This document shows, piece after piece, positions 3 to 20,000 of a DNA stretch of 20,000 nt. The stretch is taken from IMG/VR virus record IMGVR_UViG_3300043117_000361, one strand, 5' to 3'. A program made the position numbers and the translations under genes. This stretch comes from an uncultured virus (IMG/VR IMGVR_UViG_3300043117_000361) (Duplodnaviria > Heunggongvirae > Uroviricota > Caudoviricetes). The notes under the pieces were generated by a model. The model had not been told where the DNA came from. It made no database searches and saw nothing but the letters and a program-made list of their open reading frames with translations. The stretch's first letter is position 1, and each line of letters begins with the position of its first letter.

Positions 3-233
3 ACGGACCTTGAGCAAGAGAACGAAGCCCTGCATAAAGAGGTCTTGCGGTTTGAACTGGAAAACAAACGCCTGAACGGCCTGTACTGCGAGTTGCTGCA
101 TCAGGTCGAAATGAAGTACTCCGACGAATCCCGTCACGAAACAGCGAAACGGATGTTACGCACAGCCCAGCAAAGTATGGGACCAGCGGCGTCAGTTAAC
201 GACAAATCTCAGATTTTGAGCAAAGTGAAATAA
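3..233 (+). CDS. Phage hypothetical protein, 5'-truncated (coiled-coil N-part; YxELLxxVxxKxxDESRHETA motif)
   Basis: Frame is open from base 3; stop lies inside the attC at 194-253. Confidence 0.7.
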   Translation, partial: TDLEQENEALHKEVLRFELENKRLNGLYCELLHQVEMKYSDESRHETAKRMLRTAQQSMGPAASVNDKSQILSKVK

Positions 234-253
234 TCTGGAACGCCTTGTTGGCG
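194..253 (-). repeat. attC site
   Basis: Minus strand: CGCCAAC-AAGGC-GTTCCAGA...TCTGAGA-TTTGTC-GTTAACT. Confidence 0.8.
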
Positions 254-264
254 CAGGAGATAAT

Positions 265-495
265 ATGAAGGTTGGAACATTCGTAAAGGTGAAAAGTGGG
301 GCGTCTACTTGGATGAAGGATCGCGGCTACTGGATAAATGACTGGCCGGAATCCATTGACGGCATGATAGGCGAAATTACCCATGATTATACTGCGTATA
401 AGGGCGACGATTGCCACTACGAGGTCGCGCTGCCCGGCGTAGACGGGTGCGGGATACATCCGCAATGGTTGTCTGTTACCTCCCGATTCACCTGA
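265..495 (+). CDS. Small hypothetical protein, SH3/KOW-like start (MKVGTFVKVK)
   Basis: RBS AGGAG upstream; 76 aa. Confidence 0.75.
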   Translation: MKVGTFVKVKSGASTWMKDRGYWINDWPESIDGMIGEITHDYTAYKGDDCHYEVALPGVDGCGIHPQWLSVTSRFT

Positions 496-603
496 CGAGC
501 GAAATGGAAGTAAATAATGGATAAGAAACATACACAAACTAACACACAGCAAACATCGACAAACCCGCGCGTCCGTCCGGTCAGGTGCAGCCGGTGGTGT
601 GTT
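473..603 (-). repeat. Degenerate attC site
   Basis: Inner arms TTCACCTGAC / GTCAGGTGCA retained; both cores mutated (TAC, GTG). Confidence 0.5.
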
Positions 604-666
604 CGCGGTGTATGGTTGTATGCGGCGACATGGGATGGTGCAGAGGTAAGGGAGGTTTTAGCATGA
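517..666 (+). CDS. 49-aa hypothetical protein starting inside the degenerate attC
   Basis: ATG at 517; ATGA overlap with the next gene at 663-666. Confidence 0.4.
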   Translation: MDKKHTQTNTQQTSTNPRVRPVRCSRWCVRGVWLYAATWDGAEVREVLA

Positions 667-977
667 ATGAACAAAGCGATCGAATGGATACGGCCTCTAC
701 TGATTTGTTGGTATTTCCGGTTCGGCATCACTTTGACTGTTGGATTGACAGGTGCCGAACATGCCTTGATGACCACCTTGCGCTTGCCGAGTATATCCAT
801 GCGGTAACACAGGCCCCGCGTCAGTACCACGATTTTTTGAGAGAGTACCGGACGTGGCTCGACAGCCACGGAATCCCTGCTGAATCAGAGGACGGATGGG
901 CGACGCGGCAGGCTTGGGACAAAGAGAACGTCCATGCGTTCATTTGGGACGTGTGGGGGGTAGATGCCAACGCCTAA
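663..977 (+). CDS. Hypothetical protein
   Basis: GGAGGT RBS before ATG 663; stop lies inside the next attC. Confidence 0.7.
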   Translation: MNEQSDRMDTASTDLLVFPVRHHFDCWIDRCRTCLDDHLALAEYIHAVTQAPRQYHDFLREYRTWLDSHGIPAESEDGWATRQAWDKENVHAFIWDVWGVDANA

Positions 978-1036
978 ATTGAGTTTTCTGAAAGGAGCGA
1001 AGCGAGTGAAAGATAAATTTAAACGTCTTGTTCGGC
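965..1036 (-). repeat. attC site containing stop, RBS and GTG start
   Basis: + strand TGCCAAC-GCCTAA-ATTGAGT...ATTTAAAC-GTCTT-GTTCGGC; AAAGGAG 991-997, GTG 1006. Confidence 0.75.
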
Positions 1037-1485
1037 ATCTGTCTGCGTGGGCGTGGGCGGATGAGATTGAGACAACGAAACAGGCTGGCGGCGTTCTGCG
1101 CTGGAAGTCGGAATACGATTGGTGGCACTGGTACGTCGTTGAGGTCGGGACGAAAGGTGGACATTGGATTGGAAGTCACGCCGATCCGATGGTCCGAAAG
1201 GCGTGGGATGCCGCAAGGGAACGTATGCCGAACGCACACTTTAGCGGCGCGGTTTCCGCGTCTGTTCCAAGCGATCATTGGGTTTCTTTTAATGTCTGGC
1301 ACGCTGATAGTCACCCACCATTCAGCGCACCTTTGATTTGCAAGGTTCTGCATTATCGCACAGATCGAATAACCGAGGATAAGATGACACTAGAGGAACC
1401 GACCGATCCTCGGTTTTGCTTCTCCAATAACAGCGAACTTGACGAAAGCAAAACTCGTGTTATTGCGTGGAAACTCAATAACTAG
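1006..1485 (+). CDS. Hypothetical protein, apparent fusion of two cassettes through an internal attC
   Basis: RBS and GTG start lie in the attC loop; reads through 1227-1283 as PNAHFSGAVSASVPSDHW. Confidence 0.65.
   Translation: MKDKFKRLVRHLSAWAWADEIETTKQAGGVLRWKSEYDWWHWYVVEVGTKGGHWIGSHADPMVRKAWDAARERMPNAHFSGAVSASVPSDHWVSFNVWHADSHPPFSAPLICKVLHYRTDRITEDKMTLEEPTDPRFCFSNNSELDESKTRVIAWKLNN
1227..1283 (-). repeat. Degenerate attC site inside a CDS
   Basis: GCCGAAC...ATTGGGT; left core ATGCCGAAC is the exact complement of GTTCGGCAT at 1030. Confidence 0.55.
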
Positions 1486-1531
1486 CTCAACTTCGGAGCG
1501 AAGCGGAGTAAGCTGGAGCGCCTTGTTGGGC
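1473..1531 (-). repeat. attC site (family A)
   Basis: Minus strand GCCCAAC-AAGGC-GCTCCAGC...GTTGAGC-TAGTT-ATTGAGT; near-identical to 5088-5147. Confidence 0.85.
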
Positions 1532-1557
1532 GTTCCGTAACATAAAGGAGAAAAGCG

Positions 1558-1776
1558 ATGAACGAAAAAAAGTACATGATTGATGACGAACCGGCCAGCG
1601 CGAATGACATCATTCGCAAGGCGAAGGAACTGGACACGGATTACGGGTCGGACGGCTTCTGTCAGACCAGCGTGGCCGCAGATGTTTTGCAGCGGAACGG
1701 GTTTTCGGTCTGGCACAACCCTGATTATACGCCCAACGCCGGAAGTGACGATCAGAATGAAGGGAGCGAAGAATGA
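1558..1776 (+). CDS. Hypothetical protein (cassette)
   Basis: AAGGAG RBS; C-terminus PNAGSDD... is translated attC. Confidence 0.8.
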   Translation: MNEKKYMIDDEPASANDIIRKAKELDTDYGSDGFCQTSVAADVLQRNGFSVWHNPDYTPNAGSDDQNEGSEE

Positions 1777-1814
1777 GCGAGCGAAATGAGGTAGCGTCCA
1801 CTTCTTTGTTGGAC
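1731..1814 (-). repeat. attC site with ATGA stop/start overlap in its loop
   Basis: + strand GCCCAAC-GCCGGA-AGTGACG...CGTCCACT-TCTTT-GTTGGAC. Confidence 0.85.
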
Positions 1815-1970
1815 GATTTGCGCGACTTGAAGCGCGAACTTGAGGTTGCGAAAAACAGTCAACTGGCTGGTCCGGATGGACGCGCCGCGTTCACATCCTG
1901 CCTTGGGTCTGTGAACATGATTCTCGATAAACACGATACGTCCAACGCAGCAATGACGGGCGGCGAATAG
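1773..1970 (+). CDS. Hypothetical protein (cassette)
   Basis: Starts inside one attC and ends inside the next. Confidence 0.7.
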   Translation: MSERNEVASTSLLDDLRDLKRELEVAKNSQLAGPDGRAAFTSCLGSVNMILDKHDTSNAAMTGGE

Positions 1971-1997
1971 CCGTACCGTCGATTGGCCTTGTTGGGC
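1940..1997 (-). repeat. attC site
   Basis: GTCCAAC..AATGACGG...CCGTCGATT..GTTGGGC. Confidence 0.8.
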
Positions 1998-2024
1998 ACG
2001 TACCGCAAGGCCGGAAAGGACAAC

Positions 2025-2267
2025 ATGAGATCAATTCAGGAAGGCGACATTGTATGTGTTAACTTCAACAATGCACAGTACACGCTTTGCAGTCGGGCCA
2101 AGGTACTACACACGCCCTCGGCAACGGGCGACTCGTGGTACTTTCAGGACATGGAGACAAAAAAAGAATGGGCGGTCAGCGAGGGATGCACGATTACGCT
2201 GATAGAGCCTCATATGCCCAACGCAGAGTTGACCGGATCGAAACAGCCAGAGAAAGGCACAGCATGA
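2025..2267 (+). CDS. Small SH3-like hypothetical protein, TPxATGDSW family
   Basis: AAGGA RBS; similar to the N-half of 3283..3690. Confidence 0.8.
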   Translation: MRSIQEGDIVCVNFNNAQYTLCSRAKVLHTPSATGDSWYFQDMETKKEWAVSEGCTITLIEPHMPNAELTGSKQPEKGTA

Positions 2268-2318
2268 ACCAAACACCGCAAGCGGCTGTTTCGGGTACGG
2301 TCGGACGCCTTGTTCGCC
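2216..2318 (-). repeat. attC site with ATGA overlap in its loop
   Basis: GCCCAAC..GTTGACCG..CGAAACAGCC...GGCTGTTTCG..CGGTCGGAC-GCCTT-GTTCGCC. Confidence 0.85.
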
Positions 2319-2500
2319 CTTCCGGGGTGAGCATTGAGATGATGGAGTTTGCCCGTCCGCAAGACGATGATCTGTGGCACTGGGCAAACAACCTGAACGC
2401 CATGCTGCACTCGGGCTACTGCAAGAAGTGCGGCCTCACGCCGAACGGATGCCGCAACGAAGGCTGTAGGGCTAACGGAAAGGATGACACTCCGAAATGA
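2264..2500 (+). CDS. Hypothetical protein with CxxC...CxxxxC motif (cassette)
   Basis: ATGA-coupled at both ends. Confidence 0.7.
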   Translation: MNQTPQAAVSGTVGRLVRPSGVSIEMMEFARPQDDDLWHWANNLNAMLHSGYCKKCGLTPNGCRNEGCRANGKDDTPK

Positions 2501-2549
2501 GTAAGCGAAGCGCGACGAATGAAGGTAGTTGTCCATCCGCTTGTTCGAC
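2470..2549 (-). repeat. attC site (family D) with ATGA overlap
   Basis: GGCTAAC..GGATGACA...TGTCCATCC..GTTCGAC. Confidence 0.85.
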
Positions 2550-2709
2550 ATGCCCCGCGCTGGAGCTGGTGCGGGCAATCGTCGAGATGACCGAGGGACA
2601 AGCAGACATCGACAAGCGCAGCATTGTGCGCCCCGGCGTTACGCTGGGAAGGGAATCACGCCGCATACTCGCTCGTCTGTCGAACGCCGAGCATGACACT
2701 CGGCATTGA
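2497..2709 (+). CDS. Hypothetical protein (cassette)
   Basis: ATGA overlap; both termini are attC-derived. Confidence 0.6.
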   Translation: MSKRSATNEGSCPSACSTCPALELVRAIVEMTEGQADIDKRSIVRPGVTLGRESRRILARLSNAEHDTRH

Positions 2710-2751
2710 AGCGAAGCGAAAATGACGCAGTTGTCCATGCTTTTGTTGGGC
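2679..2751 (-). repeat. attC site (family D)
   Basis: GTCGAAC..GCATGACA...TGTCCATGC..GTTGGGC. Confidence 0.85.
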
Positions 2752-2770
2752 ATGGACGGGAAGGAAAACG

Positions 2771-2923
2771 ATGAAATTGAACCACTTGATTCTGATAGGT
2801 GACGCGGTGGAGAAAATCCACGAACTGACAAACACAGACATTCCTGACATCGTAGACGCCCTTACTGGTGTTGCTTGGGACGAAGAGGACGCGGGGCAAA
2901 TCAAAGCGTATCACGCTGGCTAA
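2771..2923 (+). CDS. 50-aa hypothetical protein (MKLNHLILIGDAVEKIHEL...)
   Basis: AAGGA RBS; fills the cassette; below the ORF-track length cutoff. Confidence 0.65.
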   Translation: MKLNHLILIGDAVEKIHELTNTDIPDIVDALTGVAWDEEDAGQIKAYHAG

Positions 2924-2931
2924 GATTATAT

Positions 2932-3003
2932 GCCCAATGCAGCGCTCACCGTCGGGGCTCAAGCTCCGAGCGAAGCGAGGTAGATTGAAGCCCTTTGTTG
3001 GGG
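2932..3003 (-). repeat. attC site (family B), apparently chimeric at its left end
   Basis: Body near-identical to 5653-5712; preceded by a GCCCAAT-GCAGC-GCTCACC remnant. Confidence 0.8.
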
Positions 3004-3020
3004 CTGGATTGGAGGACAAG

Positions 3021-3194
3021 ATGACATACGTGAGTGTTGACTACAAGGGCAGAGCGCACATTGCCGACGCGGAATTGCTGGACGACTACAAGGCTGGCGT
3101 GCTGGAGGATGGCGGCGTGCTGCTGCGGATCGACGGCGAGACGGTGAGCCAGTACACGGGCAATGGCGACAATGAATGGGAAGAACTTTACTAG
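3021..3194 (+). CDS. 57-aa hypothetical protein (cassette)
   Basis: GGAGG RBS before ATG 3021. Confidence 0.75.
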   Translation: MTYVSVDYKGRAHIADAELLDDYKAGVLEDGGVLLRIDGETVSQYTGNGDNEWEELY

Positions 3195-3195
3195 C

Positions 3196-3256
3196 CCCAA
3201 ACGCTGCAAAGCAGTCTCGCAGCGGTAGCAAGTAGGCTCGATTTGTCTTGTTGGGT
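3196..3256 (-). repeat. attC site
   Basis: CCCAAAC..AAAGCAGTCT...AGGCTCGATTT-GTCTT-GTTGGGT. Confidence 0.7.
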
Positions 3257-3282
3257 TTCCCAGCAAGGCGGGAAGGAACAAG

Positions 3283-3690
3283 ATGAAAAACAGGATTGAG
3301 AAGGACGACAGGGTGCTGGTGGTTTTCGCCAGCGACGGATCGAGTTTGCGCGGAGTGGTGGACTACACGCCGCAAGCGACAGGTGACTCGTGGGTGATTG
3401 TGCAAGACGATGGCACCGTCAACTATGTTCAGATGTTTGAGACGATGCAACTCGTTGGTAAACCCAACGCTGGCGGTGACGCTTCGGCGTACTCGCCGAT
3501 AGCATCCACTGCTTTGTTGTCTGTCCCGTCCAACACCATTGTGACGTGTGCCAACTGCGGCAACGAGTACGAGGTTCATTACACTGAGCCGTTCGACAAG
3601 GCTGGGGAAGGTAGACGCATCTGCGTGGATTGTTGCGAGGGACTTGGGCCAGAAGACCTGCCATGCGGCATCAGTACAGACAACAACTAG
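3283..3690 (+). CDS. Two-cassette fusion protein: SH3-like ATGDSW domain plus CxxC...CxxC zinc-binding domain
   Basis: AAGGA RBS; internal attC 3462-3522 is translated as the linker PNAGGDASAYSPIASTALLS. Confidence 0.75.
   Translation: MKNRIEKDDRVLVVFASDGSSLRGVVDYTPQATGDSWVIVQDDGTVNYVQMFETMQLVGKPNAGGDASAYSPIASTALLSVPSNTIVTCANCGNEYEVHYTEPFDKAGEGRRICVDCCEGLGPEDLPCGISTDNN
3462..3522 (-). repeat. attC site read through in frame
   Basis: ACCCAAC-GCTGGC-GGTGACGCT...AGCATCCACT-GCTTT-GTTGTCT. Confidence 0.85.
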
Positions 3691-3734
3691 CTCAAGCGTA
3701 GCGAAGCGGAGTCGCTTGCTGCATTTTGTTGGCA
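3678..3734 (-). repeat. attC site (family C)
   Basis: Near-identical to 6495-6553. Confidence 0.8.
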
Positions 3735-3754
3735 ATCTGAATAAGGAGAGAAGA

Positions 3755-3997
3755 ATGAGTGAAATGAATTGGAAGCGATTGAATAAGGAACAACTGGCGA
3801 TACTGGATCACACGGCACACCGGGCCGCTGGTGGGCTGTATTGCGGGGACAGCCCCGACATGCAAAAGCTGATCGAGGCTGGGCTGATGGTGTCGGCGGG
3901 CTGCAAGTCGTTCGTGCCGGATGAGTATTTCCGTATGACGGACAAAGGACACGAAGTGCTGCGGGAAGCATGCCGCCCCAGCTATGGAGGTGAGTGA
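3755..3997 (+). CDS. Small winged-helix-like protein
   Basis: AAGGAG RBS; MQKLIEAGLM...YFRMTDKGHEVL resembles a wHTH C-terminal motif. Confidence 0.7.
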   Translation: MSEMNWKRLNKEQLAILDHTAHRAAGGLYCGDSPDMQKLIEAGLMVSAGCKSFVPDEYFRMTDKGHEVLREACRPSYGGE

Positions 3998-4049
3998 ATG
4001 ACAGTGGAGCTAAGCGTAATTGACAGTATGCTCGATCGTCTTGTTGGCA
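3976..4049 (-). repeat. attC site (left core AGC) containing RBS, stop and start
   Basis: CCCCAGC-TATGGA-GGTGAGT...GCTCGATC-GTCTT-GTTGGCA. Confidence 0.7.
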
Positions 4050-4270
4050 TCATTCGGCGCGAGCAGTTTGACCCAGAGAAGGGGCCTCCTTCGATACGTC
4101 GATTAGCCCGCCTCACGCGCAGGCAGCAGAAGGACGTGCTGGAAGAGTGCGTAGACGCGGACTTGTGCGTAAACATCGGCATCCAGTGTGGTGGCGTGAT
4201 TGGGGTGTTTGATCGCATTGGTGACTACACCGTGGAAGACCTGACGGTAGATTACCAACGCCGAGTGTGA
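3998..4270 (+). CDS. Hypothetical protein (cassette)
   Basis: GGAGG RBS, TGAATG junction; ends in an attC half-site at 4253. Confidence 0.7.
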   Translation: MTVELSVIDSMLDRLVGIIRREQFDPEKGPPSIRRLARLTRRQQKDVLEECVDADLCVNIGIQCGGVIGVFDRIGDYTVEDLTVDYQRRV

Positions 4271-4355
4271 GGTTCAGATATGGGCGCAGTTAAGAAGAAG
4301 TAGACATCGTCACGCGGATTATTTTTTAAATGAATAATGAAGTGAAAGGGATAAA

Positions 4356-4499
4356 ATGGTAAATTCCAAACAATTTATAGCCGTGCGTATAATTATGATC
4401 GCGCTCACATTTCTTATTAACGTAGCAGTTATCGCTGGCGCTGTGTGGCTGGTGGTTAATGTGCTTCAATGGCTTTATATTCTTTTAAAAACCGTATAA
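4356..4499 (+). CDS. 47-aa predicted membrane peptide
   Basis: AAAGGG RBS; long hydrophobic stretch IIMIALTFLINVAVIAGAVWLVVNVL; AT-rich. Confidence 0.6.
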   Translation: MVNSKQFIAVRIIMIALTFLINVAVIAGAVWLVVNVLQWLYILLKTV

Positions 4500-4538
4500 A
4501 ATTAAAAGCCATCCCGTGATCGGGCGCATCTTGGATGT

Positions 4539-4641
4539 TGTGAGCGCCACAAATCAAGGGCAGTTGCCCTAAGGAGTAAACCATGAGTGATGTAGAAAAC
4601 GCGAGCGGGGCGCAAGTACCCACTCAATGCGACTGTTCGGT
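4539..4641 (-). repeat. Degenerate attC containing RBS and ATG
   Basis: GGGCAGTTGCCC...GGGCGCAAGTACCC arms, right core GTTCGGT. Confidence 0.45.
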
Positions 4642-4765
4642 ATTGCGAGCGGCGTTACGCGGGCTGCTTGAATGTCGCTGTGAAGCAAACACCGGACAAT
4701 GTTGCGAGCACGTCAAGGCGGCAGAACAAGCGTTAATGAACAATAAAACAGGAGAGCCAAAATGA
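4583..4765 (+). CDS. Hypothetical Cys-rich protein
   Basis: AAGGAG RBS; ATGA overlap with the next gene. Confidence 0.65.
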   Translation: MSDVENASGAQVPTQCDCSVLRAALRGLLECRCEANTGQCCEHVKAAEQALMNNKTGEPK

Positions 4766-5127
4766 CGGCCAGGCTGACGGTCAAGAAATTGATTACTGAG
4801 TTAATGAGCATGGACCCGGATATGGATGCAGAACGTGCCCTTTCGGATATACGCACCGACACCTTGTTGGGTTTTAACGAGGAAAGTAATGAGATGAATA
4901 TACCATGCGACTGCGGAAATGAAAAAGCGTATTGGAAAGGAGATAGGTGCGGATTGCGAATATACGCCTGTGCAGAATGCCATGCGTACAACAGCGGGCT
5001 TGAAACAGCGGCCGGTCTCATTGAAGAAGGATGCAGCAACGAAGATGATAAAGCTGTGCTGCTTTGCGGAGTTTTATCTTCTAAGAAACTCAACGATCAA
5101 GCTCAGCTTCGGAGCGAAGCGGAGTAA
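4762..5127 (+). CDS. Hypothetical protein with CxC...CxxC zinc-ribbon-like motif
   Basis: GGAG RBS; stop lies inside the attC. Confidence 0.7.
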   Translation: MTARLTVKKLITELMSMDPDMDAERALSDIRTDTLLGFNEESNEMNIPCDCGNEKAYWKGDRCGLRIYACAECHAYNSGLETAAGLIEEGCSNEDDKAVLLCGVLSSKKLNDQAQLRSEAE

Positions 5128-5147
5128 GCTGGAGCACCTTGTTGGGC
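5088..5147 (-). repeat. attC site (family A), textbook architecture
   Basis: Minus strand GCCCAAC-AAGGT-GCTCCAGC-TTACTCCGCTTCGCTCCGAA-GCTGAGC-TTGATC-GTTGAGT. Confidence 0.92.
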
Positions 5148-5588
5148 TTTTAGAGCACGTTGCAATTCAGAGAGGAGCGGGCGCCAGTCTGCTGCGGCGT
5201 CGCCAATCGGCATCAATTCGTCCGGTATGTTGTCCAGGCTTACCGGGAGGCCGAGCGCCTCCTGCAGAGCCAAGGCGGATTCCATAGTATCGAATTCGTC
5301 AGTACCGTCGGCGACGTCGACGTTAGTCCAGTTTCCTGGGTTGAAACTTTCGCCCCATTCCTTACGCATGGCGGCTAGAACCTTCTGTTCAAAGTTCGGA
5401 TCCAGGCGAAAATCGGGCATCACCGGCGGCGTGTAAGTAGGCGCTTGGGGACGCTGTTTTGGGCGTCCGAGTCCCAAAAAGGCCCTCTTCTCAAACACCT
5501 CCGCAAGCCCCTGGGCGTACGCCTGCTTCAGGTGTCCGGACACGTTGCGTTGTTGTGCAACTTTAATTCCAAGTTCATATGGTGTCAT
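5103..5588 (-). CDS. K-x-A-leader protein with an acyl carrier protein-like domain (pantetheine Ser replaced by Glu)
   Basis: AGGAG RBS 7 nt before ATG; GTDEFDTMESALALQEALG aligns by eye to ACP GADSLDTVELVMALEEEF. Confidence 0.65.
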   Translation of the reverse strand: MTPYELGIKVAQQRNVSGHLKQAYAQGLAEVFEKRAFLGLGRPKQRPQAPTYTPPVMPDFRLDPNFEQKVLAAMRKEWGESFNPGNWTNVDVADGTDEFDTMESALALQEALGLPVSLDNIPDELMPIGDAAADWRPLLSELQRALKAQQGAPAYSASLRS

Positions 5589-5652
5589 AACGAGACTCCT
5601 ATTAAAGGTCAAACACGAGCGAAGAATACCACAGGAGGCTGGCGGATGTCAA

Positions 5653-5712
5653 GTTCAACGCCGGGGCTCAAGCTCCGAGCGAAGCGAGGTAGATTGCAGC
5701 CCTTTGTTGGGG
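5653..5712 (-). repeat. attC site (family B)
   Basis: GTTCAAC-GCCGGG-GCTCAAG...ATTGCAGC-CCTTT-GTTGGGG. Confidence 0.85.
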
Positions 5713-5729
5713 CAAAAATGGAGGACAGG

Positions 5730-5921
5730 ATGGACAAGACGGCAGAACTGATTGTTGATGCGATAGTGACCGACTTCACCGACAGGCGCGGGTTGCGGCA
5801 AGAGTGGGAACAGATCGACGAGAAGATTCAGAACGAAATCAAGGGCGAGTGGATGCGCCTTGTGCGCGAGATTCTTGGTCGCCCCAACGCCGGAGTTCAC
5901 ACTCCGAGCGAAGCGAGGTAG
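5730..5921 (+). CDS. 63-aa phage hypothetical protein (DRRGLRQEWEQID motif)
   Basis: GGAGG RBS; C-terminus is attC-derived. Confidence 0.8.
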   Translation: MDKTAELIVDAIVTDFTDRRGLRQEWEQIDEKIQNEIKGEWMRLVREILGRPNAGVHTPSEAR

Positions 5922-5943
5922 TTTGTGAAACGATTTGTTCGGA
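5882..5943 (-). repeat. attC site
   Basis: CCCCAAC-GCCGGA-GTTCACA...TGTGAAAC-GATTT-GTTCGGA. Confidence 0.9.
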
Positions 5944-6034
5944 ATCAGGCACGGGTAGGCAAACCTGACGGGCGTATGGCTGGCTGCTTGGGGTTCGATT
6001 CCCCGATGCCCGTTCCCATGCCGGGGTGCCTGAT
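5944..6034 (+). ncRNA. Putative tRNA-like mini RNA (acceptor stem plus T-arm) occupying a whole cassette
   Basis: CGGGCGT/ATGCCCG stem stacked on TGGGG-TTCGATT-CCCCG; closed by ATCAGGCAC/GTGCCTGAT; no credible ORF. Confidence 0.5.
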
Positions 6035-6113
6035 GCCGAACGCACAAGCTGACCATCAAAAAAGGAGCGAAGTATGAGCGGATTTTTTGTAGCGGTCCAG
6101 CGCCTTGTTGGGC
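6035..6113 (-). repeat. attC site containing RBS and ATG
   Basis: GCCGAAC-GCACAA-GCTGACC...GGTCCAGC-GCCTT-GTTGGGC. Confidence 0.9.
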
Positions 6114-6304
6114 GCATGGTTGGACGCTGTAAATGTGGCAAGTTTGTTCCTAATTGGGGCAAACTCCACGCATCATGTAAGCATGCGGCCCTGAATGGCG
6201 TTGCCATCAGTTTGCCAGCAATACGGTATTGCCCGTGGTGTGGCTGTCGTGTGCCGCCCAATGCCGGAAATCAGGGGCATGTGCCCCAGGGAGAACGATC
6301 ATGA
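6074..6304 (+). CDS. Small zinc-ribbon-like protein (CxC...YCPWCG)
   Basis: AAGGAG RBS in the attC loop. Confidence 0.75.
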   Translation: MSGFFVAVQRLVGRMVGRCKCGKFVPNWGKLHASCKHAALNGVAISLPAIRYCPWCGCRVPPNAGNQGHVPQGERS

Positions 6305-6356
6305 GTAACACGAAACGCACAGCGGGGCACATGTCCCCTGAATTGACTTGTTATCC
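6256..6356 (-). repeat. attC site with ATGA overlap in its loop
   Basis: GCCCAAT-GCCGGA-AATCAGGGGCATGTGCCCC...GGGGCACATGTCCCCTGAATT-GACTT-GTTATCC. Confidence 0.8.
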
Positions 6357-6507
6357 AAAATGCGAAGACTGCCTGCACTGGCGGGACGAGCTATGTCATT
6401 TTGCGTCTCCGTTTTTGGCACGTCGTGAAACGCAACGCAAACGCCCGATCAAGCCAAAAAGCCTGAACTGCGGTATTGAAGGAAAGAACTTTATCGCGAA
6501 CAACTAG
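6301..6507 (+). CDS. Small Cys-rich protein (CxDCxHW...C...CGxEGKNF)
   Basis: GGAG RBS; ATGA overlap. Confidence 0.75.
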   Translation: MSNTKRTAGHMSPELTCYPKCEDCLHWRDELCHFASPFLARRETQRKRPIKPKSLNCGIEGKNFIANN

Positions 6508-6553
6508 CTCAAGCGCGTAGCGAAGCGGAGTCGCTTGCTGCGCCTTGTTGGAG
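6495..6553 (-). repeat. attC site (family C)
   Basis: Near-identical to 3678-3734. Confidence 0.8.
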
Positions 6554-7031: not shown

Positions 7032-7589
7032 ATGCAGAAGATTATCAGCTTGTTTCAGAGAAATTATGAGACGGATAGACTCGTGAGGGATGAAGTCGTA
7101 CCAGGTGCTGAATGGGTACTGAACGGTGAAGGCACCGCAACTCGGAAGTGGGACGGGATGTGCTGCATGGTGCGTAATGGACAACTGTTCAAGCGATATG
7201 AAGTGAAGCGAGGTAAGGCCTTTCCGCCTGACTTTGAGCCTGCTTGCGATATTGACCCGAATACGGGCAAGCAGCAGGGATGGCGTCCGGTTGGAGACGG
7301 GCCGGAAGACCGCTGGTTCCGTGAAGCGTTTACCGGGGAAGAACCGGACGGCACTTATGAACTGATTGGGCCAAAGGTGCAAGGCAACCCAGAAGGATTT
7401 AACTCGCATACGCTCGTTCCGCACGGTCAGCATCCCGTTGCCGCACCACGCACCTTCGACAAACTGCGGGAGTGGTTCAAGGGACCGGGGAGCGATATCG
7501 AGGGCGTGGTATGGTGGCACGACGATGGACGAAAGGTGAAGATCAAGGCCAAGGACTTCGGGATTCGCCGTGTTGCCAACCAGCGATAA
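7032..7589 (+). CDS. RNA ligase-like nucleotidyltransferase (DUF5565/RLIG1-like)
   Basis: Motif I TRKWDG, III TYELIG, IV EGVVW, V KIKAKDF; AAGGAG RBS. Confidence 0.8.
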   Translation: MQKIISLFQRNYETDRLVRDEVVPGAEWVLNGEGTATRKWDGMCCMVRNGQLFKRYEVKRGKAFPPDFEPACDIDPNTGKQQGWRPVGDGPEDRWFREAFTGEEPDGTYELIGPKVQGNPEGFNSHTLVPHGQHPVAAPRTFDKLREWFKGPGSDIEGVVWWHDDGRKVKIKAKDFGIRRVANQR

Positions 7590-9392: not shown

Positions 9393-9683
9393 ATGGCGAA
9401 CAATGAAATGACACCAGTATATAATGCGGAGAAGCAACGGACGTCGCAGGTAAACGAACAGATGGAATGGATCGAAAAAGCCATGAGCCAGGTGGACGGC
9501 AGCATGGGGCGGCTGGAGGATCGCCTTCACGCCGTGCTCCGCTAGGAGCCGCCGATCGACCATGGCACGTGCTCCGAGTGCCCGCAGCTCGTACCGCTTG
9601 CGGAGAGGCTCATGTCGTTTGCGGATAAGGTTGCCGCGACTGGCGACCGTGTGAACAATATGATTGATCGGCTGGAACTGTAG
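9393..9683 (+). pseudogene. Coiled-coil phage protein interrupted by an in-frame TAG at 9543-9545
   Basis: AAGGAG RBS; ...LEDRLHAVLR*EPPID...LVPLAERL...MIDRLEL reads as one coherent protein. Confidence 0.6.
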
Positions 9684-17847: not shown

Positions 17848-18519
17848 GTGTCCGATCCTAACTTACCAGACAGATATGCTGATTTATATCGTACGTTTGA
17901 TAAAGGGCATGATCTAAACCACATAAAATCAGTTAGAGATCGCGCTTCAGTACTCTCGTCCAAATATGCTCCCGATAAATCTGATCTTATTGATCTTGCA
18001 GCCGCTCTTCACGATGTAGGAATATCCAGAGGACGCGATAATCACCCTGAACACGGCTATAGTATGCTGAAAGAGGACAAGGATATAAGAAACAGGATTT
18101 CTAATAGAGATTTCAATCTTCTTTTAGAGGCAGTAAGAGAGCATGGAGCTTCATCGGGGCGCCCTGAATCTACAGTTGCCAGAATAGTGAGCGACGCCGA
18201 TAAAACAGCTGAAAAAGACCCTTATGATTCTATTTTACGTGCTTACAATTATGGTAAATCTCACTTTCCCTCCATGACCGATGATCAACAGGTTCGGCGG
18301 GCTGTTGATCACATAGTGGACAAGTACAGCCAAGGAGGCTACGGCTCTAATGTGTTCTTTCCTGAATCAAGAGATATTCTTGAGAAAAGGACGGAGGCTG
18401 CCAGAGCTCTTCAGAAAATGCAGGACATACGTGAGATAAAAAGTAAACTAGGTATCAACAGTAAGTCCGCTCATTTTCTTGGACATGCGCTTGGAACTCT
18501 TTCTTTTTTAGGTTTGTGA
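17848..18519 (+). CDS. HD-domain phosphohydrolase
   Basis: GH...H, AAALHDVG, NH..HG, VREH, VSDADK. Confidence 0.85.
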   Translation: MSDPNLPDRYADLYRTFDKGHDLNHIKSVRDRASVLSSKYAPDKSDLIDLAAALHDVGISRGRDNHPEHGYSMLKEDKDIRNRISNRDFNLLLEAVREHGASSGRPESTVARIVSDADKTAEKDPYDSILRAYNYGKSHFPSMTDDQQVRRAVDHIVDKYSQGGYGSNVFFPESRDILEKRTEAARALQKMQDIREIKSKLGINSKSAHFLGHALGTLSFLGL

Positions 18520-18589: not shown

Positions 18590-18934
18590 ATGCGTGCAGC
18601 ACATTTTTCTAGGCTCAATTCGAGCCGCACAGATAGGGAACTCACAGAGGCGAAAAAAATGGGACTTTCTGATGTTGTCCCATGCACCCTGTGTCCCCGA
18701 GACCCCGACGGGTACGTGGCCGTGATACTGGACACGTGCTCCAGAGGGTTTAAAGGTGTCTTTGATGCAATTCTGCTCAAAGACTGCAGCCCGGCGGAGC
18801 TCAGCAAACTGATCCGGGCCAGCAAACAGGAACGGGAAGGGAAAACCATTCCCGTATTCTTATGGGACCCACACGAGAAGCAGTGGTGTTCCATCTGTGA
18901 ATTAAAAAATAGGAGGTACCATGAAGACCTATGA
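18590..18934 (+). CDS. Hypothetical protein
   Basis: GGAGGT RBS. Confidence 0.7.
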   Translation: MRAAHFSRLNSSRTDRELTEAKKMGLSDVVPCTLCPRDPDGYVAVILDTCSRGFKGVFDAILLKDCSPAELSKLIRASKQEREGKTIPVFLWDPHEKQWCSICELKNRRYHEDL

Positions 18935-19286
18935 GGTCAAAATATCCACCAGACACCAGGGGTTGGTGGATTGGCTTGCCCGCCGTGGGATAAGGGGGCA
19001 AGGACTGGCATATCCCACAAGAGAAGATGTGCTAGGGCATGTAATTGTAGGAACATTGCCCTACCATTTGGCGGAGGCGGCTGCTGCCGTCGTGTCGGTA
19101 GAGTTGACTCTTTCTACGGAAATGCTGGATAGAGAGTTAACATGTACCGATGTTGCTGCTGCAAACCCTAAGGCCACTGCATACGTAGTAACCAAAATAA
19201 GGAGCAGAATCCGTCCTACGTGTAAAACCGGATCCTGGGGTTTGTGGACCGCCAGAGAACTGGTGGCAAAGATAAACAGTAAGTAA
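18921..19286 (+). CDS. csx16: Csx16-like (VVA1548 family) protein, putative cOA ring nuclease
   Basis: TRHxGLVDWLxxxGI...VIVGTLPYHLA...RELTxxD motifs; AGGAGG RBS. Confidence 0.75.
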   Translation: MKTYEVKISTRHQGLVDWLARRGIRGQGLAYPTREDVLGHVIVGTLPYHLAEAAAAVVSVELTLSTEMLDRELTCTDVAAANPKATAYVVTKIRSRIRPTCKTGSWGLWTARELVAKINSK

Positions 19287-19892: not shown

Positions 19893-20000
19893 ATGTGCGA
19901 TTTCATAAGTTGGATTGAAAAAGATAACAAACTTTTTTACTTAACAGATAAAGAGGTCTTCTCTGCCCAGGGCAGAGAAAAATTCTCAGGGTGTCGTGAC
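19893..20000 (+). CDS. Phage hypothetical protein, 3'-truncated (MCDFISWIE...)
   Basis: AAGGAGG RBS; open to the window end. Confidence 0.7.
   Translation, partial: MCDFISWIEKDNKLFYLTDKEVFSAQGREKFSGCRD

Follow-up and report, generated by a model that had tools for sequence, protein, structure and literature searches.

The open reading frame (ORF) 3283..3690 (plus strand, 135 aa) passes without a stop through an attC-like site at 3462-3522, and it lies within an array that is a real frame-locked shuffling system, a reversed variant of attC cassette arrays. The array, in which genes of 100-300 nt are placed between hairpins with AAC/GTT cores, occupies the first 6.5 kb of the window, as we call the whole 20,000-nt stretch of viral DNA analysed here, together with 2.7 kb upstream in the virus record that holds the window (G000; 111,747 bases, 57% complete). 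We consider it probable that the reversed-array account set out below is correct overall, with the fusion encoded by this ORF being a by-product and not a selected module.

The fused ORF is preceded by a Shine-Dalgarno-like (SD) AAGGA (3273..3277, plus strand). Its first part, the N-half (62 aa; 3283..3468, plus strand), belongs to the ATGDSW family and is predicted to fold as an SH3/Tudor/Sm-like beta-barrel, in agreement with the SH3-like domain named in the first-pass annotation of this DNA. The N-half has no stop of its own and ends with AAC, read as Asn. It is followed by the 61-nt site s25 (3462..3522, minus strand), which contains neither a junction-frame stop nor a start, and whose 7-nt cores lie at 3462-3468 (AAC at 3466-8) and 3516-3522 (GTT at 3516-8). 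As had been proposed, the frame stays open here and s25 encodes a linker, of 17 aa, leading to a CxxC/CxxC domain: the C-half (57 aa; 3514..3684, plus strand), a start-less, zinc-ribbon-like body with relatives P0004, P0001 and P0005, whose two motifs are C89/C92 and C114/C117 and whose final codon is again AAC (Asn). The next site, s26 (3678..3734, minus strand), gives the fused ORF its stop, TAG at 3688-3690. The earlier statement that each half possesses its own pair of complementary 9-bp cores was borne out, with 9/9 complementary positions for the N-half (3250-3258 with the left core at 3460-3468, plus strand) as well as for the C-half (3516-3524 with 3676-3684). So was the statement that the second half lacks a ribosome-binding site and start, as neither an in-frame ATG or GTG nor an SD-backed start was found in s25 or in the first 75 nt of the C-half body; a TTG start at 3514 was set aside as improbable, the TTG TTG at the right core of s25 being devoid of an SD. 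On the plus strand the s25 hairpin scored z = -3.66, equalled by 0 of 200 shuffles. The preceding site, s24 (3196..3256, minus strand, which carries the canonical top strand; AAC at 3200-2, GTT at 3250-2), is part of the N-half cassette, lies ahead of the N-half 5' UTR, has an extra base on its right arm and is 87% alike to site L206_6636. An AlphaFold model of the fusion (5-row alignment) gave a pLDDT below 50 for the C-half and a pTM of 0.42, and was uninformative as to contact between the halves.

The fused ORF is no assembly slip, because the exact 135-aa protein is present on 20 contigs and a contig of run X13 spans 2958-3960 with 0 differences; the suspicion of a sequencing error could thus be dropped. 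Half or more of the interval 2900-4000 was present in 18 of the 22 runs listed, those with good coverage being all oil-field runs of 2020 and possibly from one campaign, and no RNA datasets were among the runs listed. Pfam and PHROGs gave no name above cut-off to either half, the interval 1400-3800 had no match among 50,697 GenBank phages, searches for Rfam and tRNA matches gave none, and promoter and terminator counts were no better than shuffle level.

Within the window the reversed array extends from 192 to 6553 (sites on the minus strand) and includes 19 of the 30 curated sites, the 11 others falling within the 2.7 kb upstream in G000; the sites measure 57-130 nt and are spread over 9.3 kb. 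Both cores were needed for curation, and the right cores at 707, 4043, 4635 and 4866, which have no recognisable left core, were not counted. A detector trained on the array's own sites, and therefore picking up only this site family, called 24 sites in the array versus 1 in the other 101 kb of G000, both strands included. With at least 2 co-oriented attC sites and no adjacent integrase, the array qualifies as a CALIN. Site s25 shows the RYYYAAC...GTTRRRY cores around an imperfect hairpin of the attC size (~55-140 nt); if the plus strand is taken as the bottom strand, most of the 30 sites also show the L-box extrahelical base opposite the recombined AAC and the purine-rich, stabler bottom strand. 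The complementary outer core halves expected of a gene cassette with a circular intermediate are present not only in the two halves of the fusion but, at 7/9 or better, in the 23 adjacent cassette pairs classed. The genes depart from the textbook cassette, where a gene with its own start and usually its own stop lies on the top strand upstream of its own attC: here the bottom strand carries the genes, and each follows its own site. Elsewhere, the window encodes an RNA ligase (PHROG 14301; 7053-7589), an HD-domain protein (17848-18519) and a Cas_VVA1548-family protein (18921-19286). Compared with G000 it has 22 differing positions, all near its end (19915-20000) except for one at 9467, and near the window end G000 carries repeated paralogous genes.

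According to PMC5027507, the integrase cuts the bottom strand between A and C of AAC, extra bases are found on the arm facing this AAC, and the bottom strand of an attC site is rich in purines and the more stable of the two. In our array, at best pairing, the extra base was on the right arm of the coding strand in 28 of 30 sites, and was often C (16/28, by a heuristic) instead of the usual G; G exceeded C on the plus strand in 26/30, and constrained folding energy was lower on that strand in 22/30. Two controls showed the opposite arrangement, namely the published TJE1 CALIN, with the extra base on the left arm of the coding strand in 3/3 sites, and L273, where the s17/s30 site family is found with genes on the opposite strand. 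Judged from the side of the extra base, the G excess, the folding energy and both controls, the coding strand is, by its sequence features, the attC bottom strand and the array polarity reversed, from which it follows that a cassette would comprise a hairpin and the body on its right. Textbook polarity, which the first-pass annotation had assumed, was consequently rejected, and the site at 3462-3522, previously given to the first cassette, belongs to the second (right-hand) one. From PMC5027507 and the tails of homologues, the crossover would fall between 3467 and 3468.

The junction lies inside coding sequence. For 26 of the 30 array sites, AAC is read as Asn by the longest open frame arriving from upstream; a stop in that junction frame occurs inside the site in 27 of 30, versus 20 and 15 in the other two frames. 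For comparison with other arrays, we screened 384 loci obtained by scanning with patterns and proteins, and kept 25; we dropped L159, L225 and L161 (duplicates of one contig), L073, L155, L180, L362 and L375 (likely chance calls), L273 because of its normal polarity, L310 because its spacing is not gene-sized, and any site that scored below 6.5 and had no core match of 8. A generic site pattern was abandoned because its matches were due to chance (of 122 loci, a single one reached 3 calls, and it proved not to be an array), and a further site-pattern scan found no loci. The other arrays behaved similarly, with the Asn frame open upstream in 74/91 sites and a stop inside in 73/91. Pooled, 100/121 sites have the Asn frame open on their upstream side, and the junction-frame stop is present in 100/121, against 147/242 for the other frames (p = 2.5e-5).

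Based on these observations, we propose that a cassette would be a unit of hairpin plus body, moved at AA|C by an integrase acting in trans (that of the host, or an IntI encoded in the missing region), with the main crossover at the AAC of the coding strand. As nearly all bodies read this AAC in frame as Asn, the C-terminal tail and the stop of each protein would come from whichever cassette follows. The hairpins would fall into three types. Those of type (i) are short and contain a stop. Type (ii) hairpins are long and supply a stop as well as an SD, a start and a leader for the body ("starter" sites). Type (iii) hairpins are short and lack a stop, and as a rule they finish in an ATGA that overlaps the following start. 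On the GTT side, exchange at a slower pace or assembly that happened repeatedly may have put a type (iii) hairpin, in matching frame, on a start-less zinc-ribbon body; such a combination would be translatable only by read-through and would hence be appended to the left-hand gene, the product being a barrel-linker-zinc-ribbon protein. The anatomy of the sequence, the polarity, the switching of tails at Asn, the separate existence of the halves and the recurrence of fusions are observed, whereas exchange on the GTT side, translation of the fused ORF and its status as a tolerated by-product are what we infer here.

Searching the halves separately, as the first-pass annotation had advised, showed that each occurs apart from the other and with other partners. 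The N-half is found without this C-half in P0002 and P0003, in a paralogue at 2025, and in L002 and L003, where the family is an ordinary phage gene without sites. In P0002 and P0003 the tail changes right after the Asn. The same was seen for the gene at 1006, in whose cluster 8 of 8 other members retain the leader encoded by the left site while the tail differs directly after Asn (6 tail types among the 8), for the P0001 cluster (4 members, leader kept, 2 tails, switch after Asn) and for P0038 (leader retained, tail altered directly after Asn); in P0036 the tail is kept, and in P0051 the divergence begins slightly ahead of the junction. For the C-half, a search of 1.84 billion representatives returned 17 matches. 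Separate from the N-half are P0004 (89% identical, all cysteines present), P0001 (81% identical, 36-aa leader) and P0005; P0004 and P0005 open with short leaders like those in starter sites, and the origin of all three leaders from hairpins is suggested by peptide likeness alone. Fourteen of the 17 matches were read, and apart from P0004, P0001 and P0005 most are proteins of 43-128 aa with unrelated fronts; 12 of the 17 are shorter or unrelated-context relatives, and the only close 90% clusters are P0004 and P0001, each with its own leader. With regard to the DNA context of these relatives, viral scans gave unrelated zinc ribbons only (L001, L004) and a metagenome scan found nothing. One C-half body is joined to at least 3 different left sites, and in 7 pairs of 96-100% identical sites the flanking DNA is unrelated on both sides; joins at GTT would therefore appear to vary too, slower than those at AAC. 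As a point against the proposed hairpin-plus-body units, the flank likeness of related sites is only weakly right-biased (0.7 or more in 2 right versus 0 left flanks, of 36 pairs). The gene at 3755-3997 is also present in L372 (79% at the DNA level) with another site, another tail and an internal stop. The SD-plus-start word of the starter hairpins also stands ahead of small genes in L131, L133, L138, L139 and other viral loci, from phages lacking any detected site.

A second read-through ORF, 1006..1485 (plus strand, 159 aa), had been described as having the same arrangement across 1227-1283. The read-through itself holds: the ORF starts with GTG 1006 within the preceding starter site s15 (965..1036, minus strand; with SD, the leader going with the right-hand gene), covers the body 1030-1233, the stop-free site s16 (1227..1283, minus strand) and a start-less body (1277-1479), and has its stop in site s17; the exact 159-aa protein is present on 8 contigs. 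The intactness of the site does not hold, s16 being not clearly intact because ATT replaces GTT and its weak hairpin does not stand out from shuffles in folding (z = -0.74). For the 84-aa appended part, a search among proteins of 46-147 aa gave no homologue. The ends of the body 1277-1479 carry ATT (1277-1279) and AAT (1477-1479) in place of GTT and AAC; these are mutually complementary, as predicted by neither crossover model and perhaps by chance, AAT occurring in 4 of 30 sites. A third read-through concerns s02 (in G000; -2628 to -2013 in window coordinates), where the frame of an upstream gene continues into a starter site and coincides with that of the ATG there; translation could thus give a fused product as well as a separate one. 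The array further contains (i) an ORF (4762-5127) fused over a truncated site (~34 nt remaining before GTT 4866), whose second part is equipped with an SD and a start (ATG 4894) of its own and also exists by itself as P0051, (ii) a site, s08 (in G000; -747 to -587 in window coordinates), with an internal duplication and no start, followed by a tiny, stop-blocked CxxC..CxxC body that looks silent, and (iii) the sole textbook-oriented cassette seen in the window (5103-5612, minus strand), with a gene of 160-169 aa ending inside site s30, a sigma-70-like promoter (10/12) at 5652-5623 and no paralogue in G000.

The first-pass annotation had also named a one-off stop-loss as an alternative. In its broader form, this explanation holds that a stop or start was lost by point mutation or deletion, that the ORF either is not translated beyond the hairpin or has no function, and that the array is a frozen relic. 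Decayed sites do occur (s08 with its blocked body, the truncated site before 4866, the four right cores without a left core), s25 has a weaker L box (score 5.5, versus 6.7 in 14 of 30 sites; its extra base is C), s16 has the ATT core, and the C-half was modelled with the low confidence given above. However, stop loss is unnecessary, since stop-free short sites are a regular class, accounting for 18 of 91 sites elsewhere, and simple stop-loss at s25 was rejected on this ground; the closest sites to s25 in other arrays are stop-free and short, and are followed by a UTR and ATG. Against decay also speak the normal length and 9/9 cores of s25, the retention of every cysteine in a C-half 89% identical to P0004, and the recent tail exchange seen between near-identical genes, and we regard it as quite improbable. 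Fourteen of the 18 stop-free sites elsewhere end 4-21 codons beyond GTT, most of them where the frame overlaps the following start, while 4 run long: L189, which has its own ATG and hence no fusion; L372, where a 45-aa barrel-like gene is joined across the site to a zinc ribbon; L251 (399-1178), where one 260-aa frame unites three zinc-ribbon-like parts, of which the first resembles Lar below cut-off; and L331, a long read-through ended by the contig edge and perhaps a fusion. Similar fusions thus recur in two or three other arrays (L251, L372 and perhaps L331). The fusion site L372_8492 is 96% identical to L172_2600, which precedes a UTR and an own start. The L251 frame crosses one whole and one apparently shortened site.

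We classed 48 cassettes, leaving 3 further ones without a called gene. As many as 43 of the 48 have no stop of their own; the start is in the body in 16, in the site in 22 and in both in 2, while 2 (s16, s25) depend on read-through only, 1 (s02) combines a site start with read-through, and 5 have no SD-backed start. A start inside the site is thus found in 25/48. All 3 stop-free sites of the array run in frame into the next gene (~1 in 27 by chance). The cassette 3468-3683, being start-less and stop-free, would be predicted to append to nearly any upstream gene of the array because 26 of 30 upstream genes reach the crossover in one frame. When a start-less body is placed at a random site, as a rough null, it receives a start in 31% of cases, is reached solely by read-through in 5%, and stays unexpressed in 64%; the read-through share of expressed start-less bodies was 2/27, versus 13% expected (p = 0.57).

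These figures bear on selected domain shuffling, in which start-less, stop-free cassettes, mostly zinc ribbons, would be kept as C-terminal modules making useful multi-domain proteins. A junction frame fixed in 100/121 sites, the in-frame continuation of all 3 stop-free sites, the independent fusions in L251 and L372, and the function of attC-encoded linkers in engineered proteins (PMC7439510) agree with such a scheme, but junction-frame stops are enriched (p = 2.5e-5), fusions occur at the chance rate (2/27 versus 13%), the C-half body is normally stand-alone (P0004, P0001, P0005 and 12 others of the 17), and a second partner was not found. The latter point also affects the supposition that the module is reused behind different upstream ORFs, as protein, viral and metagenome searches found no other upstream partner for s25 plus the C-half. 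Selection for the fusion is therefore unsupported, stops being favoured, fusions being at chance and one partner being known, and we hold selected shuffling to be unlikely. Of the idea that some cassettes are domain modules, mechanical appending survives (26/30 in the same frame) and dedicated modules are not supported (fusions at chance, stops enriched). Counter to the by-product view, every contig seen carries the fusion and the zinc ligands are preserved, as might be expected under selection, and the 3/3 in-frame continuations point the same way.

The recombinase supposed to drive the shuffling was not found on G000 (57% complete; no PF00589 or TIGR02249 match), nor was a tyrosine recombinase found in any of 5 other phage records, one of them 94% complete, and the array is no complete integron, in which intI and attI adjoin it. 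The 319-aa frames in the L372 genome were rejected as integron integrases, being XerD/XerC. No excision joint was found in the contigs of 4 runs; three contig joints lay at repeated sites, or had unknown or 59 other letters between, and were discarded as repeat artefacts. Since neither recombinase nor excision joint was found, it is by comparison alone that we infer integrase-type recombination at these sites. The missing integrase would also suit hairpins that are translation-coupling linkers spread by homologous recombination of phages and not integrase substrates, as would the SD, starts and ATGA overlaps in many sites and the 96-100% identical site families between phages. Such linkers are nevertheless hard to reconcile with unrelated 9-bp cores that are complementary cassette by cassette, with the one-sided extra base, with tails that switch exactly at AAC, or with the same site family in the normally oriented array L273, and we find this explanation very improbable.

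CALINs with IntI1-active sites have been described in the virulent phages TJE1, PH101 and P12002L (Qi et al. 2023, PMC9892861), and share with the present array the attC cluster, the lack of an integrase in the phage and the small accessory genes (PMC9892861). In TJE1, orf1 and orf2 likewise end within a site and read AAC as Asn; unlike here, there are 3 sites of textbook polarity, so that the tails belong to the same cassette, whereas our array has 30 reversed sites, tails given by the neighbour and many starts inside the hairpin. In L385 (TJE1; 77-280 and 318-1046), two of the three genes stop in a site, which may bear on cassette origin. Natural translation through attC is known from the GCUF1-OXA-28 fusion of a class 1 integron (Hocquet et al. 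2012, PMC3375312), where an in-frame attC also joins two cassettes and the cassette remains excisable; as described there, it differs in its textbook polarity, a sole stop-less upstream cassette, a downstream gene with its own start, and an off switch without an array-wide fixed frame. Engineered attC linkers (2020, PMC7439510) likewise use attC between domains and were proposed for module shuffling; those are engineered, while the linker here is natural and known from its sequence. At attI1, according to a review (PMC8876359), ORF-11/ORF-18 similarly extend over the crossover, take the incoming cassette's stop and show translational coupling; ORF-11 is one short leader at attI, whereas here every junction behaves so. 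Cassettes fused by attC loss drop the site (PMC8876359), which is retained here. We found no papers on reversed, frame-locked phage arrays in the literature covered, most subscription journals lying outside it.

Integron cassettes are usually seen as whole genes followed by their site. With the crossover inside coding sequence and in one fixed frame, cassette reordering alters proteins and not only expression, and multi-domain proteins are occasionally built through an intact site, something known before from one clinical case and as an aim of engineering. As near-identical hairpins are found on unrelated ordinary phage genes, the origin of cassettes becomes testable in phages. It is doubtful that phages use reversed attC arrays for frame-locked protein assembly in full, with tails swapped in the Asn frame, leaders swapped on the GTT side, and C-terminal domains selected as reusable parts; if true, this would be a natural, recombinase-driven counterpart of exon shuffling, with cassettes such as 3468-3683 serving as C-terminal domains.
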